Shown here piece after piece: positions 51,737 through 57,147 of a DNA stretch of 64,000 nucleotides (its first letter is position 1; every line of letters starts with the position of its first letter). Below the pieces are notes generated by a model. That model saw only the letters and a program-made list of their open reading frames with translations. It had not been told where the DNA came from and searched no databases. This DNA is from a bacterium (GTDB lineage: Bacteria > UBA8248). The position numbers and the translations under genes were made by a program. The stretch spans positions 3,392,001 to 3,456,000 of the forward strand of contig OZ241875.1 in the NCBI GenBank assembly GCA_965203325.1, given 5' to 3'.

Positions 51737-52771
51737 ATGAACATGGCGGAAACCATGCGGGCGGCGGTGTATTACCGAAACGACGACGTGCGGATCGAGA
51801 AGATGGCGAAGCCCCGCGCCGGGGCGGGCGAGCTTTTGGTCGAGACGCGCGCGAGCGGCATCTGCGGAAGCGACGTAATGGAGTGGTACCGGGTAAAGAG
51901 CGCGCCGCGCGTCTTGGGCCATGAGGTGACGGGCGTCGTCGCGCAAGCGGGCGAGGGCGTGGAAGGCTTCCGGGTAGGTGATCGCGTCTGCGTCACCCAT
52001 CACGTTCCCTGTAATGCCTGCGCGCATTGCCTGCGCGGAGACCACACGGCTTGTGAGATGCTGAAAGCTACGAATTTCGACCCGGGCGGTTTCGCCGAGT
52101 TCATCCGCTTACCCGCCGCCAACGTGGATCGGGGGATGTTCCGCCTGCCCGATGAGGTTTCGGACGATGCGGGCGTGTTCGTCGAGCCTTTGGGCTGCGT
52201 CCTGCGCGGCTGGCGGCGCTTTCGTATGACGCCGGGCCTCTCCGTCCTCGTGGTGGGAAGCGGGATGTCGGGCCTGTTACACGTGCAGGCGGCGCGCATC
52301 CTGGGAGCGGGAGCCATATTCGCGGCGGACGTTCATCCCTGGCGCCTCAAGGCCGCCGAGCGGTTCGGCGCGCATGCGCTGCCCCCGTGCGAAGATATGA
52401 CCGAGGCCTTACGGGAGGCGAACGACGGCCGCCTGGCGGATCGCGTCGTCCTGTGCGCGGGGGCGCCCGAGGCTCTTAAGACGTCCCTCGCGTGCGTCGC
52501 GACCTGCGGCGTCTTGCAGCTTTTCGCCCCCACGCCGCCGGGATACCGCCCTGAAATCGACCTCAACCGAATCTGGAGCGAGCAGATCGCCATCACCACC
52601 ACTTACGGCGCAGCGCCGCTCGATCTCGAAGAGGCGCTCGCGCTCATACGCGCCGGCCGCATCGAGGTCGAGGAGATGGTCACCCACAGGCTCCCGCTCG
52701 CGCAGGCGCAGGAGGGCTTCCGCCTCGTCGCCGAGGCGGGCGAATCACTGAAGGTGGTGCTCAAACCCTGA
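51737..52771 (+). CDS. Zinc-dependent (sugar/polyol) alcohol dehydrogenase
   Basis: GICGSD, LGHE, C-x2-C-x2-C-x7-C, VEPLGC, VGSGMSG. Confidence 0.92.
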   Translation: MNMAETMRAAVYYRNDDVRIEKMAKPRAGAGELLVETRASGICGSDVMEWYRVKSAPRVLGHEVTGVVAQAGEGVEGFRVGDRVCVTHHVPCNACAHCLRGDHTACEMLKATNFDPGGFAEFIRLPAANVDRGMFRLPDEVSDDAGVFVEPLGCVLRGWRRFRMTPGLSVLVVGSGMSGLLHVQAARILGAGAIFAADVHPWRLKAAERFGAHALPPCEDMTEALREANDGRLADRVVLCAGAPEALKTSLACVATCGVLQLFAPTPPGYRPEIDLNRIWSEQIAITTTYGAAPLDLEEALALIRAGRIEVEEMVTHRLPLAQAQEGFRLVAEAGESLKVVLKP

Positions 52772-52786
52772 TCGCAAGCCCGAATC

Positions 52787-52815
52787 TTGCGGTCGGGCGC
52801 GAAAGAGATTAGTAT
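52787..52815 (+). promoter_or_regulatory. Array unit 1 promoter
   Basis: TTGCGG-N17-TAGTAT; hexamers and spacing kept although the spacer differs from units 2-4. Confidence 0.65.
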
Positions 52816-52905
52816 TTTTCTGAGAAAGCGAGCAACGCAGGGCAGGACGCTCTGGGTCCACGAGGTTGTTCGGTTTTTGTTGGTGGACTCGCAAGGAGGA
52901 AGGAA

Positions 52906-53166
52906 GTGACGACTTTTCAAATCGCGACGCTGGTGGCATTGGGCATCCAGAGCGCAATAGCTCTTGGTGTAGGAAGCGTTCAGTGTATCCTGATATGGAA
53001 GGGCTTGAGACAGATGGAGCGCGCCTCGGAGTTCAGGGAAAGAGAGAGCGCTAGACGGCACGAGGAAGTCATGATGGAGGGTGCGAGGCGGCACGAAGAG
53101 AACATGAAAAAACATGAGCAGTCCATGACCGCGCTCAAGACGCTCATCGAGCGGACAGGGAAGTAA
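52906..53166 (+). CDS. Array micro-protein 1 (86 aa; single TM plus coiled coil)
   Basis: GTG start with an AAGGAGGAAGG RBS; MTTFQIATLVALGIQSAIALGVGSVQCILIWKGLRQM...ARRHEE...TALKTLIERTGK. Confidence 0.85.
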   Translation: MTTFQIATLVALGIQSAIALGVGSVQCILIWKGLRQMERASEFRERESARRHEEVMMEGARRHEENMKKHEQSMTALKTLIERTGK

Positions 53167-53191
53167 CCTCTACTTCCCGCCGGCTACTCCG

Positions 53192-53222
53192 CCCCCGTCC
53201 TCCGGGACGGGGGTTTTCTGTT
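53192..53222 (+). terminator. Array unit 1 intrinsic terminator
   Basis: CCCCCGTCC-TCCG-GGACGGGGG-TTTTCTGTT (9-bp stem, cUNCGg loop). Confidence 0.88.
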
Positions 53223-53305
53223 GCTCGATTGCTCTCTGCCCATCATCTGTTTTGGGAATCTCTCCAGGTGGCGGTTAGGCCTTGAGTCGCGCGAAGAGCC
53301 GGATA

Positions 53306-53334
53306 TTGCGGGGGAGCGCGAAAGGGGATAGTGT
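53306..53334 (+). promoter_or_regulatory. Array unit 2 promoter
   Basis: TTGCGG-N17-TAGTGT. Confidence 0.6.
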
Positions 53335-53414
53335 TATATCTAGGATTGCGGGCCATGGAACGCGAGGCTGTGGAGTTCGCAGGGTGATAATCAAAGACCC
53401 GAATGGGGTGGGTA

Positions 53415-53621
53415 ATGACGACTTTTCAAATCGCGACGCTGGTGGCATTGGGCATTCAGAGCGCAATAGCTCTTGGTGTAGGAAGCGTTCAGTGTATCCT
53501 GATATGGAAGGGCTTGAGGCAGATGGAGCGCGCCTCGGAGTTCAGGGAAAGAGAGGGCGCAAGACGGCACGAGGAGTCCATGACCGCGCTCAAGACGCTC
53601 ATCGAGCGGACAGGGAAGTAA
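53415..53621 (+). CDS. Array micro-protein 2 (68 aa)
   Basis: Paralogue with a single ARRHEE unit. Confidence 0.85.
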   Translation: MTTFQIATLVALGIQSAIALGVGSVQCILIWKGLRQMERASEFREREGARRHEESMTALKTLIERTGK

Positions 53622-53646
53622 CCTCTACTTCCCGCCGGCTACTCCG

Positions 53647-53677
53647 CCCCCGTCCTCCGGGACGGGGGTTTTCTGTT
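53647..53677 (+). terminator. Array unit 2 intrinsic terminator
   Basis: Identical to the unit 1 terminator. Confidence 0.88.
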
Positions 53678-53760
53678 GCTCGATTGTTCTCTGCCCATCA
53701 TCTGTTTTGGGAATCTCTCCAGGTGGCGGTTAGGCCTTGAGTCGCGCGAAGAGCCGGATA

Positions 53761-53789
53761 TTGCGGGGGAGCGCGAAAGGGGATAGTGT
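53761..53789 (+). promoter_or_regulatory. Array unit 3 promoter
   Basis: TTGCGG-N17-TAGTGT, overlapping an extended -10 TGtTATATT. Confidence 0.6.
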
Positions 53790-53868
53790 TATATTCAGGA
53801 TTGCGGGCCATGGAACGCGAGGCCATGTAGTTCGCAGGGTGAAAATCAAGGACCCGAAAGGGAACAAG

Positions 53869-54150
53869 ATGACGACTTTTCAAATCGCGACGCTGGTGGC
53901 ATTGGGCATTCAGAGCGCAATAGCTCTTGGTGTAGGAAGCGTTCAGTGTATCCTGATATGGAAGGGCTTGAGGCAGATGGAGCGCGCCTCGGAGTTCAGG
54001 GAAAGAGAGAGCGCTAGACGGCACGAGGAAGTCATGAGGGAGAGCGCGAGGCGGCACGAAGAGACCATGAAAAATCATGAGGAAAACATGAAAAAACATG
54101 AGGAATCGATGACCGCGCTCAAGACGCTCATCGAGCGGACAGGGAAGTAA
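53869..54150 (+). CDS. Array micro-protein 3 (93 aa)
   Basis: Paralogue with 11+7+7 aa of extra coiled-coil repeats. Confidence 0.85.
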   Translation: MTTFQIATLVALGIQSAIALGVGSVQCILIWKGLRQMERASEFRERESARRHEEVMRESARRHEETMKNHEENMKKHEESMTALKTLIERTGK

Positions 54151-54175
54151 CCTCTACTTCCCGCCGGCTACTCCG

Positions 54176-54206
54176 CCCCCGTCCTCCGGGACGGGGGTTT
54201 TCTGTT
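54176..54206 (+). terminator. Array unit 3 intrinsic terminator
   Basis: Identical to the unit 1 terminator. Confidence 0.88.
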
Positions 54207-54289
54207 GCTCGATGGTTCTCTGCCCATCATCTGTTTTGGGAATCTCTGAAGATGGCGGTTAGGCCTTGAGTCGCGCGAAGAGCCGGATA

Positions 54290-54318
54290 TTGCGGGGGAG
54301 CGCGAAAGGGGATAGTGT
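54290..54318 (+). promoter_or_regulatory. Array unit 4 promoter
   Basis: TTGCGG-N17-TAGTGT. Confidence 0.6.
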
Positions 54319-54398
54319 TATATTCAGGGTTGCGGGCCATGGGACGCGAGGCCGTGGAGTTCGCCGGGCGAATACAAAAGACCCGAGAGGAGAGAAAA

Positions 54399-54593
54399 GT
54401 GACGACTTTTCAAATCGCAACGCTCGGGTTCTACGCCGTGCAGTCCCTCATCGGCCTCGCACAGTGCGCCCTCATCTTGATGGGCTTGAGGCAGATGAGC
54501 CGCGCCTCGGAGTTCAGGGAAAGAGAGGGCGCAAGACGGCACGAGGAGTCCATGACCGCGCTCAAGACGCTCATCGAGCGGACAGGGAAGTAA
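54399..54593 (+). CDS. Array micro-protein 4 (64 aa; divergent TM segment)
   Basis: GTG start with a GAGGAG RBS; MTTFQIATLGFYAVQSLIGLAQCALILMGLRQMSRASEFREREGARRHEESMTALKTLIERTGK. Confidence 0.85.
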   Translation: MTTFQIATLGFYAVQSLIGLAQCALILMGLRQMSRASEFREREGARRHEESMTALKTLIERTGK

Positions 54594-54618
54594 CCTCTAC
54601 TTCCCGCCGGCTATTCCG

Positions 54619-54649
54619 CCCCCGTCCTCCGGGACGGGGGTTTTCTGTT
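54619..54649 (+). terminator. Array unit 4 intrinsic terminator
   Basis: Identical hairpin; abuts the convergent recD2 stop. Confidence 0.88.
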
Positions 54650-54666
54650 GCATCGCCGATTGTCCG

Positions 54667-57147
54667 CTACTTATCCACGGGGTGGTAGGTCAGTTCGCCC
54701 CCGGGCGGGGAATCGTCCTCGGTCGCTTCGTCCTCATAAAGAGCATCCGGCGGGGCGTCTTCCGTGAACTGCGTGTCATCCGCATCCGCATCCTGCGGGG
54801 CGGGGGAGGGCTCCTTGAGAAGCGGGGCGAGTTTCGCCTCGCGGCGGATTCTTTCCGGCAGGCCGCTCCAGCGCCTCCTCACGCGCGCGTTTCCTATCGC
54901 CATGCCGAGCGCCTTTTTCGACCCGACGAACACCGCCAGACGCTTCGCCCGCGTGAGGGCGGTGTAGACGAGGTTTCTCTGCAGCATCGGGAAGTGCTGG
55001 GTGTGGAGCGGGATGACGACGGCGGGGTATTCGCTCCCCTGGCTCTTGTGGACGGTGATGGCGTAGGCGTGCATCACCTCATCGAGCGCGCCGCGCGTAT
55101 ATTCGACGACGTTCGAATCGAAAGCGGCGCGAATGCTCCCCTCCTCGGGCGCGACGCTCTTGACGACGCCGATGTCGCCGTTGAACACGTCCTTGTCGTA
55201 GTTGTTGCGCACCTGGATGAGCTTGTCCCCGGTGCGGAACGTCCGGCCGCCGCTCTGTAGCGCGGGCGCGCTTCCGGCGGGATTGAGCGCCTCCTGTAAG
55301 CGCGCGTTCAGGCTCTGCACGCCGAGCACGCCGCGCTGCATGGGGGAGATGACCTGGAGGTCGGCGATGGCGTCGATCTTGAACCGATCGGGAATGCGCT
55401 CGCGGCACAGTTCGATGATGAGGTCGGCGCAGCGCTCCGCCTCGCTCTCCTCGATGAAGTAATAGTCGAGCGGCGCGTCTTCTTTTTCCCCCTTGCCGTT
55501 TCGGGGCATCTCGCCGCGGTTCACGCGGTGGGCGTTCTCGACGATCAGGCTCTCCTGCGCCTGGCGGAAGACCTCGGTGAGCCTCACGACGGGCGGGGTC
55601 TCTGAGGTGATGACGTCGCTCAGGACGTTGCCGGGTCCCACGGAGGGGAGCTGGTCTACGTCGCCCACCAGGACGAGCGTCGCCGGGTCGGGCACCGCGC
55701 GCAGCAGGTGGGCCGTCAGGTGTACGTCGAGCATCGAGGCCTCATCGATGATCACGATGTCGCCGGTGAGCGGGTTTTCCGCATCGCGGGTGAAGCCGCC
55801 CGAGTGCCAGCTGTATTCGAGCAGCCTGTGGATGGTGGCCGCCTCGTGGCCTGTGACTTCAGAAAGACGCTTGGCCGCCCGGCCCGTGGGCGCGCCGAGG
55901 ATGACCTGGAGGCCGAGTTTCGTGTAGAGGTTCGTGACGGCGCTCACGATGGTCGTCTTGCCGGTGCCGGGGCCGCCCGTGACGATAAGCACCTTCTGCG
56001 TGAGCGCGCCCTCTATCGCCGCGCCCTGATCCTTCGTCGCCTTGCCGCCTTCGAGCGCGCGCCGGGCGAGATGACCGAGGCGCTCTTTCGTCGTACTCCC
56101 GGGCGCTCCCTGTCCCCGCATGGCGGCTTCGAGACGCGCCTCGTCGCGCGTCGTGCGGATGAGCGCGGCGAGACGGCGGGCGACCTCGCATTCCGCGGCG
56201 TAGAGCGGGCGCGCGTAGACGCGCTTGCCCTCGGCCGAAGCGAGGTTCTCGACCATGTTCGCCGATTCGATCACCACCGAGCCGCCCCGGCCCAGGTTCT
56301 CGAGAACGGGAGCGAGGGCGTCGACTTCGGTCTCGAGCATCTCGACGGCCGTCTCCATCAGGTCGCCGTAGGGCAGAAAGCAGTGGCCCTCGCGCTCGGC
56401 GAGCTGGTTCAGGACGTAGACGGCTCCCGCCGCGAGGCGTTTGGGAGAGTCAACGGGAATGCCCAGTTGCTGCGCGATTCGGTCCGCGCTCTTGAAGCCC
56501 ACGCCGTGAATCTCTGACGCCAGGCGATAGGGGTCTTCGCGCAGAATCCGTATGGACGCCTCGCCGTAGGTTCTCAGGATTTTCTCGGACAGATGGAGCG
56601 GGACGTCGTATTGACGGAGAAAAAGCATGATCTCCTTGACTTCGCTCTGGCTCTTCCAGCTCTCGACGATGGCTTCGAGCTTCTTCGCGCCCAGCCCGGC
56701 GATTTCCGTTAAGCGCTCGGGTTGGTTGTCGAGGATTTCGAGGGATTTCTCGCCGAAGCGCGTAACGATTCTCCTGGCGAGAGCGGGGCCGATGTTCTTC
56801 ACGATGCCGGACGCCAGGTACTTTTCGATTCCCTCGATTGTCGTGGGCGCCAGCGGGCGGGCTAGTTCTGCATGAAACTGGCGGCCGAACCTGGGATGAT
56901 CCTTCCAGCCGCCCTCGAAGCGGACGCGTTCGCCCTCGCGGATGGAGGAGAGATAGCCCACAACGGCCACGCGGGGGAAATCCTCGTTGTCCGGCTGGAC
57001 GAGCAGGACGCTGTAGCCGGTGTCCTCCGCGCGGAAGCGGATCCGCTCCACCGCGCCGGTCAGTTCGGTGCCGTCTTGCGGGAAGAGGCCCGCCTGGGGA
57101 GGAGGGGTACTTCTTCCGGGGCGTGGTGTTCTCGGTTTGCGCGTCAT
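54667..57147 (-). CDS. recD2: ATP-dependent RecD-like DNA helicase (RecD2)
   Basis: N-terminal OB/HhH region (YLASGIVKNIGP, GVGFKSAD); TGGPGTGKTT, APTGRAAKRL, IDEASM, GDVDQLPSVGPG, YAITVHKSQGSEY, YTALTRAK. Confidence 0.95.
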   Translation of the reverse strand: MTRKPRTPRPGRSTPPPQAGLFPQDGTELTGAVERIRFRAEDTGYSVLLVQPDNEDFPRVAVVGYLSSIREGERVRFEGGWKDHPRFGRQFHAELARPLAPTTIEGIEKYLASGIVKNIGPALARRIVTRFGEKSLEILDNQPERLTEIAGLGAKKLEAIVESWKSQSEVKEIMLFLRQYDVPLHLSEKILRTYGEASIRILREDPYRLASEIHGVGFKSADRIAQQLGIPVDSPKRLAAGAVYVLNQLAEREGHCFLPYGDLMETAVEMLETEVDALAPVLENLGRGGSVVIESANMVENLASAEGKRVYARPLYAAECEVARRLAALIRTTRDEARLEAAMRGQGAPGSTTKERLGHLARRALEGGKATKDQGAAIEGALTQKVLIVTGGPGTGKTTIVSAVTNLYTKLGLQVILGAPTGRAAKRLSEVTGHEAATIHRLLEYSWHSGGFTRDAENPLTGDIVIIDEASMLDVHLTAHLLRAVPDPATLVLVGDVDQLPSVGPGNVLSDVITSETPPVVRLTEVFRQAQESLIVENAHRVNRGEMPRNGKGEKEDAPLDYYFIEESEAERCADLIIELCRERIPDRFKIDAIADLQVISPMQRGVLGVQSLNARLQEALNPAGSAPALQSGGRTFRTGDKLIQVRNNYDKDVFNGDIGVVKSVAPEEGSIRAAFDSNVVEYTRGALDEVMHAYAITVHKSQGSEYPAVVIPLHTQHFPMLQRNLVYTALTRAKRLAVFVGSKKALGMAIGNARVRRRWSGLPERIRREAKLAPLLKEPSPAPQDADADDTQFTEDAPPDALYEDEATEDDSPPGGELTYHPVDK

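Follow-up and report, generated by a model that had tools for sequence, protein, structure and literature searches.

A tandem array of four units encoding an unnamed family of small, repeat-built membrane proteins between adh and recD2 in a bacterium of the UBA8248 lineage

The 64,000-nucleotide (nt) window analyzed here (positions 3,392,001 to 3,456,000 of contig OZ241875.1, assembly GCA_965203325.1, from a bacterium of the UBA8248 lineage) contains, at window positions 52784-54651, four head-to-tail units that occupy the intergenic region between a zinc-type alcohol dehydrogenase gene (adh) and the helicase gene recD2. The units start 519, 455 and 529 nt apart, and each is composed of a promoter-like motif, a leader of 79-90 nt, an open reading frame (ORF), a hairpin at the stop codon and an intrinsic terminator. 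The original prediction, made from the DNA letters, had proposed a tandem array of self-contained units, and this was borne out, given that motif, leader, ORF, hairpin and terminator are present in all four. The explanation we favor, tentatively and at somewhat less than even confidence, is that the units are independently transcribed genes for oligomeric membrane-anchored rods, whose His/Met core binds or conducts cations. Unit anatomy, coding status, the existence of the family, copy numbers and length steps that keep phase are shown by the sequence data; self-assembly comes from structural modeling, and topology and cation binding are predicted from sequence features.

Codon diversity was computed over 43 units from 17 loci, i.e., the window and 16 related loci. 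Nucleotide diversity is 0.28-0.33 at codon position 3, against 0.07-0.15 at position 1 and 0.06-0.07 at position 2, and this third-position excess (2-5x) is found in the N- and C-terminal conserved blocks and in both of the transmembrane-helix types described below. The synonymous variation is spread along the ORF, with no long constrained block. Judged by this pattern of diversity, the ORFs are real genes.

The suggestion that these genes form an undescribed, amplifiable family of small membrane proteins held up when homology and copy number were checked: no characterized family was matched, and 16 copies were counted in the genome. The latter are the family ORFs found at E < 1e-4, namely the four of the array, a tandem pair at 3.689 Mb and ten singles. 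A search for homologues of similar length returned 86 proteins, whose sole source name, on one entry, was "hypothetical protein". A profile search over 1.84 billion representatives yielded 555 clusters (50% identity) at E <= 1e-3, 194 of them at E <= 1e-10; none of the ten diverse clusters looked up for names had one. The four window proteins and 17 diverse relatives gave no match above the curated cut-offs of Pfam and NCBIfam, and no significant match was obtained in PHROGs, PADLOC or the PDB sequences (PDB E >= 6.7). The best ESM Atlas score was 0.85, which is below the level counted as a match, and four family peptide motifs had no occurrence in the literature searched. The family is new to these libraries and to this literature, where it has neither a name nor a model. 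Small membrane proteins are under-annotated, and this family, with at least 555 clusters and tens of copies per genome in some lineages, therefore explains many of the genes that are uncalled, or called "hypothetical", in the uncultured bacteria concerned.

All members begin with MT(T/E)(F/Y)(Q/E)xA(T/S)L, which in some is followed by extra LALQQ-type heptads. Next come one hydrophobic segment with G-x-x-Q-(C/I), a basic juxtamembrane stretch, a variable count of (R/K)RH(E/A)ExM repeats and the C-terminus AL(K/E)xLIERT, in which E-R-T is invariant in a 24-sequence alignment; the end TALKTLIERTGK is common to all four array ORFs. Proteins range from 64 to 93 amino acids (aa) in the array, and the largest family members have 236 aa. 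Within the transmembrane helix there is Q-C-x-L-I-W or Q-C-x-L-I-L, and no His. Lys and Arg are more numerous in the 15 residues after the hydrophobic segment than before it in 223 of 230 proteins (means 3.5 vs 0.41), and from this charge bias we infer a topology with the N-terminus outside and the C-terminal part in the cytoplasm. HxxxM motifs number 648 in 231 proteins and hold 74% of all His, with Arg at -1 in 62% and Glu at +2 in 90% of cases.

Length varies in a restricted manner. All 66 close members exceed the shortest form by 0, 7, 11, 14, 18, 21, 25, 28, 32, 33 or 35 residues, and these increments are all sums of 7s and 11s, which are coiled-coil periods, so that length steps keep the phase of the helix. 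Two types of transmembrane helix exist, differing by 4 residues; the two Gln are 11 or 7 residues apart, and hence would lie on the same helical face in both types.

The monomer was modeled as one helix over residues 3-85, with a mean predicted local distance difference test (pLDDT) value of 83. When four copies of the unit 1 protein were modeled together, the score was 0.84, compared with 0.00 for the best of three controls. Of 30 proteins solved as same-chain pairs, 20 attain the pass mark for self-assembly; of 23 solved as single chains, 1 does. These counts apply only roughly here because an alignment of our own and four copies instead of two were used. The four-copy runs agree in at least 93% of contacts, with a partner pLDDT of at least 88. 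The modeled bundle is parallel and in register, and its core contacts include Q15, Q26, H52, M56, H63, M67, H70, M74, L77, L80/I81 and T84. The model supports self-association, without fixing the number of chains. With fixed ends, 7-/11-residue stalk steps and His/Met in the modeled core, the family offers a natural example of repeat-number evolution limited by helix geometry.

According to the explanation favored here, each unit, equipped with a promoter and an intrinsic terminator of its own, a conserved leader and a strong ribosome-binding site, would give rise to a single-pass inner-membrane protein with few N-terminal residues outside, one transmembrane helix with a polar Gln(-Cys) face, and the remainder in the cytoplasm. 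The cytoplasmic part would be one continuous helix of 7- or 11-residue repeats ending in the ALKxLIERT cap. Chains would associate laterally in a parallel, in-register arrangement, with the transmembrane Gln and the repeat His/Met turned toward the core, and the number of repeats would set the length of the rod. The core possibly binds or conducts cations, either soft metals or protons. SilE and PcoE are soluble periplasmic proteins that bear His...Met motifs on helices with HxxM/MxxH spacing. The array family is like them in its repeated His...Met motifs, but the motif here is HxxxM, the proteins are predicted to be cytoplasmic and membrane-anchored, and metal binding is putative.

Several considerations weigh against this explanation. 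Every functional step is derived by computation alone, the topology being read from the positive-inside rule and no other source. In the model, the four-chain stoichiometry was imposed, the calibration refers to two copies, and such models have a tendency to line up amphipathic helices next to one another. With one HxxxM per chain, the short forms (units 2 and 4) would make a weak metal site, and no recurring metal-homeostasis genes are found beside the array or the 10 dispersed sites examined. The strongly conserved leader receives no role beyond "regulation or stability". Finally, the trace of a transcript is a 270-nt contig from one sponge metatranscriptome, of which 214 nt align with unit 1 (52894-53107) with 12 differences; given these differences, it is a relative's copy (~94% identical), and it is weak evidence of transcription, as carried-over DNA is possible.

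A broader version, which we consider rather unlikely, holds that these are habitat-linked, phylum-crossing rods polymorphic in length, and that the arrays generate variants which co-assemble into a Gln/His/Met-lined store or channel for soft metals or protons, under dedicated control by the conserved promoter and leader. If true, bacteria would have in this family their own counterpart of viroporin-like channels, or else a "metal sponge" bound to the membrane.

The array itself bears marks of recombination. Across the 17 loci there are 1-5 units per locus, and in the alignment rows the related arrays hold the same position, bounded by the adh 3' end ahead of their first unit and by that of recD2 behind their last. 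The inter-unit spacers in four related loci (L018, L020, L023 and L024) contain copies of the last ~25 nt of recD2. Hence, the duplicated segment once included the recD2 3' end, and these copies are, as far as the alignments tell, the footprint of in-place duplication by unequal crossing-over. The 3' half of unit 4 is identical to that of unit 2 despite their different transmembrane helices, so the array is a mosaic produced by recombination among copies. An array born in place by unequal crossing-over would then have been homogenized and reshuffled by gene conversion, and such recombination would produce the co-encoded length variants and the two transmembrane-helix types. The copy number of four is supported indirectly, by the single 4.39-Mb contig and by the 16 related loci with 1-5 units; in read runs X2-X4, no contig spanned the array. 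One Candidatus Binatia genome has eight tandem, close-packed copies with differing repeat numbers and a period of ~400 bp, between which no terminators were detected. The formation of tandem arrays of length variants is therefore shared family-wide, and the self-contained transcription unit belongs to the present lineage only. The coordinates of the array and its flanks are presented in Table 1.

Table 1. Features of the four-unit array and its flanking genes, in window coordinates.
Feature	Position	Strand	Remarks
adh (zinc-type alcohol dehydrogenase)	51737-52771	+	Upstream flank of the array
Unit 1 promoter-like motif	52784-52815	+	-35 TTGCGG 52787-52792; 17-nt spacer including GAAAG; -10 TAGTAT 52810-52815
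Unit 1 leader	52816-52905	+	Type B, 90 nt; Shine-Dalgarno AAGGAGG; folding z = 0.63
Unit 1 ORF	52906-53166	+	86 aa from a GTG start; transmembrane helix of the long type; HxxxM motifs: 3
Unit 1 3' module	53158-53224	+	Stop-codon hairpin 53158-53178; intrinsic terminator 53191-53224
Unit 2 promoter-like motif	53303-53334	+	TTGCGG 53306-53311; TAGTGT 53329-53334
Unit 2 leader	53335-53414	+	Type A, 80 nt; conserved hairpin near 5' end, ~53346-53383
Unit 2 ORF	53415-53621	+	68 aa from an ATG start; transmembrane helix of the long type; HxxxM motifs: 1
Unit 2 3' module	53613-53679	+	Stop-codon hairpin; terminator stem 53646-53669
Unit 3 promoter-like motif	53758-53789	+	From genome-wide pattern scan
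Unit 3 leader	53790-53868	+	Type A, 79 nt; hairpin ~53801-53838; folding z = -2.98
Unit 3 ORF	53869-54150	+	93 aa from an ATG start; transmembrane helix of the long type; HxxxM motifs: 4
Unit 3 3' module	54142-54208	+	Stop-codon hairpin; terminator stem 54175-54198
Unit 4 promoter-like motif	54287-54318	+	From genome-wide pattern scan
Unit 4 leader	54319-54398	+	Type A, 80 nt; hairpin ~54330-54367; upstream ATG in frame with ORF
Unit 4 ORF	54399-54593	+	64 aa from a GTG start; transmembrane helix of the short type, 4 residues shorter and of different sequence
Unit 4 3' module	54585-54651	+	Stop-codon hairpin; terminator stem 54618-54641; recD2 3' end directly after
recD2 (helicase)	54667-57147	-	Convergent; downstream flank of the array

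The promoter-like motif TTGCGG-N17-TAGT(A/G)T, with GAAAG within the spacer, is found in all four units and is kept in 43 of the 43 related units. The pattern ATMTTGC-N18-20-TAGWRT has exactly four matches in the 4.39-Mb genome, all of which are the array units. A consensus sigma-70 scan of the region gave no matches, because the motif is too distant from TTGACA/TATAAT. The possibility that the TTGC element belongs to a sigma-54 promoter was rejected by eye, given the absence of the GG element at the required distance.

Units 2-4 share leader type A, and unit 1 has leader type B, which recurs in 10 units from 9 genomes; the leaders end in a purine-rich ribosome-binding site. In the type A leaders (n = 33), per-site diversity is ~0-0.05 over the promoter hexamers and a ~40-nt core, compared with ~0.3 at synonymous sites and ~0.5 in the upstream spacer. 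This core forms an 11-bp hairpin near the likely mRNA 5' end. The original prediction had described the leader as structured, which is upheld by its conservation but not by its folding energy: against shuffled sequences the four leaders give z = 0.10, 0.07, 0.63 (unit 1) and -2.98 (unit 3), so that three of four fold no better than shuffles, and the leader was rejected as a thermodynamically stable structure. Compensatory pairs number zero in the 33 type A and zero in the 10 type B leaders. The hairpin is therefore plausible and unproven by covariation, because pairing is kept only through one-sided changes (e.g., G-U to A-U). We read the leader, from its conservation, as a selected cis element, which could be a stabilizing 5' hairpin or a regulator-binding site. 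Neither the type A nor the type B core was found elsewhere in the genome.

Two further readings of the leaders were examined. Pairing of a U-run in the type B leader with the ribosome-binding site is doubtful, because the U-run is probably upstream of the transcription start. A conserved leader peptide opened by the upstream ATG of type A was rejected, given that its frame varies among units: it stops after 6 codons in unit 3 and after 10 in unit 2, and is frameshifted in one related locus. As a separate observation, the upstream ATG of unit 4 (54339, within 54315-54398) is in frame with the ORF, and a GTG at 54315 opens that frame. The start at 54339 is used in several database entries and would lengthen the protein by a charged stretch at its N-terminus. 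In units 2 and 3, stop codons interrupt this frame.

At the 3' end, the stop-codon hairpin has 8 bp and the loop ACCTC in all four units, with the stop codon in its 5' arm. In unit 1, this hairpin and the terminator (53140-53225) fold far better than shuffles, with z = -4.57. At least six pairs form around the stop codon in 81% of 37 distinct 3' regions, compared with 83% of 3'-shuffled controls. The hairpin was accordingly rejected as a family-wide feature, since its frequency outside the nearest relatives is no higher than that of the shuffled controls; by these counts it is specific to this lineage or its nearest relatives. The terminator of every unit, on the + strand, has a 10-bp GC-rich stem, a TCCG loop and a T-run, and its stem is preserved by compensatory changes in some relatives. 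The region contains 11 terminator-like sites, some of them nested, compared with 2.3 +/- 1.6 in shuffles. Rfam 15, applied to 52000-55500, gave best scores of 15-19 bits against gathering scores of 49.5-70, which is chance level.

The arrangement of these elements bears on whether the array is of the type I toxin-antitoxin kind, a candidate reading put forward in the original prediction. In such a system, the units would encode membrane-damaging peptides whose translation is repressed by leader structure, by a small RNA acting in antisense or in trans, or by both, and the tandem copies would arise as for ldr/rdl and ibs/sib. The likeness of layout to the E. coli LDR and SIB arrays that had been pointed out is real: a single intergenic region houses tandem units of ~0.5 kb, all of which have a separate promoter and terminator and code for a transmembrane peptide that bears a charged tail. 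According to excerpts of PMC2887945, LDR (ldr/rdl) and SIB (ibs/sib) likewise have tandem intergenic units, a transmembrane peptide with a polar or charged C-terminus, and similarity between copies that extends beyond the ORF. In units 1-3, a Trp and then charged residues also come after the transmembrane helix, resembling the Ldr/Fst signature as excerpted from the same source (PMC2887945). Tandem intergenic duplication, which is frequent and not obligatory in type I systems, is present here with four units and at the 16 related loci with 1-5. The family is patchy across taxa and has many copies, and the gap between leader and synonymous diversity could be due to a second constraint, for instance an RNA partner.

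The RNA-antitoxin half of that proposal, however, found no support in the computational tests. On the minus strand there is no convincing promoter in the consensus and no conserved terminator, the single site being a weak one in unit 1. The ORF contains no long run of synonymous constraint, and no complement of the leader core exists elsewhere in the genome, where the one match, with 4 mismatches, lies inside a 456-aa ORF. The ribosome-binding sites are strong and not clearly sequestered. Type I toxins are generally under 60 aa (described as under 70), with one transmembrane helix and a short polar C-terminus, in the excerpted text of PMC2887945. All four array proteins have the helix, and the 64- and 68-aa ORFs are under 70 aa, whereas those of 86 and 93 aa are not, and the family, at up to 236 aa, goes well above the usual size. 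About two thirds of the protein is a conserved, repeat-built coiled coil and not a short polar tail, and the close-packed Binatia array indicates that the self-contained unit is lineage-specific. Hence, the resemblance to LDR and SIB is one of layout, the identity of the array as a toxin-antitoxin system of type I is not established, and we regard that account as unlikely.

A membrane-anchored spacer or tether, which we also judge improbable, would use the LIERT cap to dock a cytoplasmic partner, the number of repeats setting its distance from the membrane. The invariant termini around a variable middle, including the E-R-T end, agree with this, as do the length changes in phase-preserving steps only and the co-encoding of sets of different length in arrays of three phyla. 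The nearest parallel is YhcB/ZapG, in which, according to excerpts of PMC8163987, an N-terminal transmembrane helix precedes a cytosolic coiled coil, and the protein assembles into a tetramer and organizes membrane partners. Unlike the array family, YhcB is a single-copy gamma-proteobacterial gene without variable repeats, and its tetramer mixes parallel and antiparallel packing, whereas the array bundle is modeled as all parallel. There is no sequence relation to DUF1043, which was unmatched in the Pfam scans of the window proteins and relatives. No recurrent neighboring gene hints at a partner, the conserved cap may equally be a coiled-coil trigger or cap, and a simple spacer would not need the strict conservation of core His and Met.

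A pore of the holin, viroporin or abortive-infection type, in which phage infection, stress or a similar trigger would make a Gln-lined bundle open the membrane, is in our view very doubtful. The polar face of the transmembrane helix and the parallel in-register bundle of the model are consistent with it, and so is the topology, which matches that of the M2-type viroporins (AM2, BM2 and CM2). Excerpts of PMC6679168 describe the latter as small type III proteins that have a short external N-terminus and a long internal tail and form parallel tetramers with polar pore-lining residues, and excerpts of PMC6403292 describe BM2 as a coiled-coil tetramer channel. For the array proteins, the corresponding four-chain bundle is a model, their sequences have no HxxxW motif, their polar transmembrane residues are Gln and Cys, and the family is bacterial, unlike the M2-type viroporins of influenza viruses, so the likeness is one of architecture only. 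Resemblances to lysis proteins were found for Pfam XhlA (E = 0.084), for PHROG hemolysin and Rz-like spanin entries (E = 0.02-0.18), and for an Atlas cluster with Holin_BhlA in 28% of its members (score 0.80-0.84), but all of them are below any threshold; the XhlA model reached 13.5 bits against a cut-off of 34.7, and the match to a holin family fails. No lysis cassette, prophage, defense gene or endolysin adjoins the array, no PADLOC matches were obtained, and searches of 50,697 records from phages, 72,556 from plasmids and a viral contig collection returned no relatives. Sixteen copies per genome, embedded among housekeeping genes, would also be unusual for lysis or suicide genes.

The distribution of the family was examined in several genome sets. 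Among other genomes of the same genus, 21 of 22 have matches, with 1-30 matches each, although match counts are not exact copy numbers. Of the genomes from other genera of the phylum, 1 of 28 has matches (50 other genomes of the phylum were compared in all). Distant members occur in metagenome-assembled genomes (MAGs) titled Alphaproteobacteria and Candidatus Binatia, five such genomes having 1-23 matches each, and an even sample of the Alphaproteobacteria class contained the family in 2 of 301 genomes, both already known carriers. Near-restriction to one genus, together with scattered lineages of two other phyla, makes the family a candidate marker of a shared life-style. A host-exposed symbiosis factor of co-resident symbionts from different phyla would fit this patchy spread (near-confinement to one genus of its own phylum, the two Alphaproteobacteria-class genomes and some Binatia MAGs), an RNA library with a match labeled "sponge metagenome" and the paralogue adjoining an ankyrin-repeat gene, but it is the least probable of the alternatives, given that most of the protein is predicted to lie in the cytoplasm and that no signal peptide or lipobox is present.

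Around the array lie adh, genes for a DeoC-type aldolase and an HD-domain protein, recD2 and mazG. The surroundings of 10 dispersed sites, 104 ORFs in all, showed no recurrent neighbor and consist of mixed metabolic and housekeeping genes. At genome positions 964183-969940, two paralogues flank an MmeI-type restriction-modification gene, adjoined by the ankyrin-repeat gene and a phage-type integrase, a context which suggests a genomic island.

Other copies in the genome have 5' regions of their own. The tandem pair at 3689256-3690309 (- strand) shares a near-identical upstream region of at least 100 nt, which is unrelated to the array leaders. The paralogues near 522300, 653100, 964200 and 3700200 share the promoter-like motif TTTGAC(T/A)-N16-17-GRNGARACT, and their leaders hold TCCACGAG, which represents a second, subfamily-specific 5' region. 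A CCACGAGG-like motif common to the leaders of dispersed paralogues was dropped as a family element because it is absent upstream of the Alphaproteobacteria and Binatia members.

One further copy departs from the repeat pattern. At genome positions 2707659-2708522 (- strand), a 288-aa open frame (family protein of ~250 aa) keeps the family N-terminus and transmembrane helix, and ~10 copies of an ESxEALRxLIEE-type unit replace the His/Met repeats. Judged by its sequence, the C-terminal cap motif itself appears to have been amplified in this frame.

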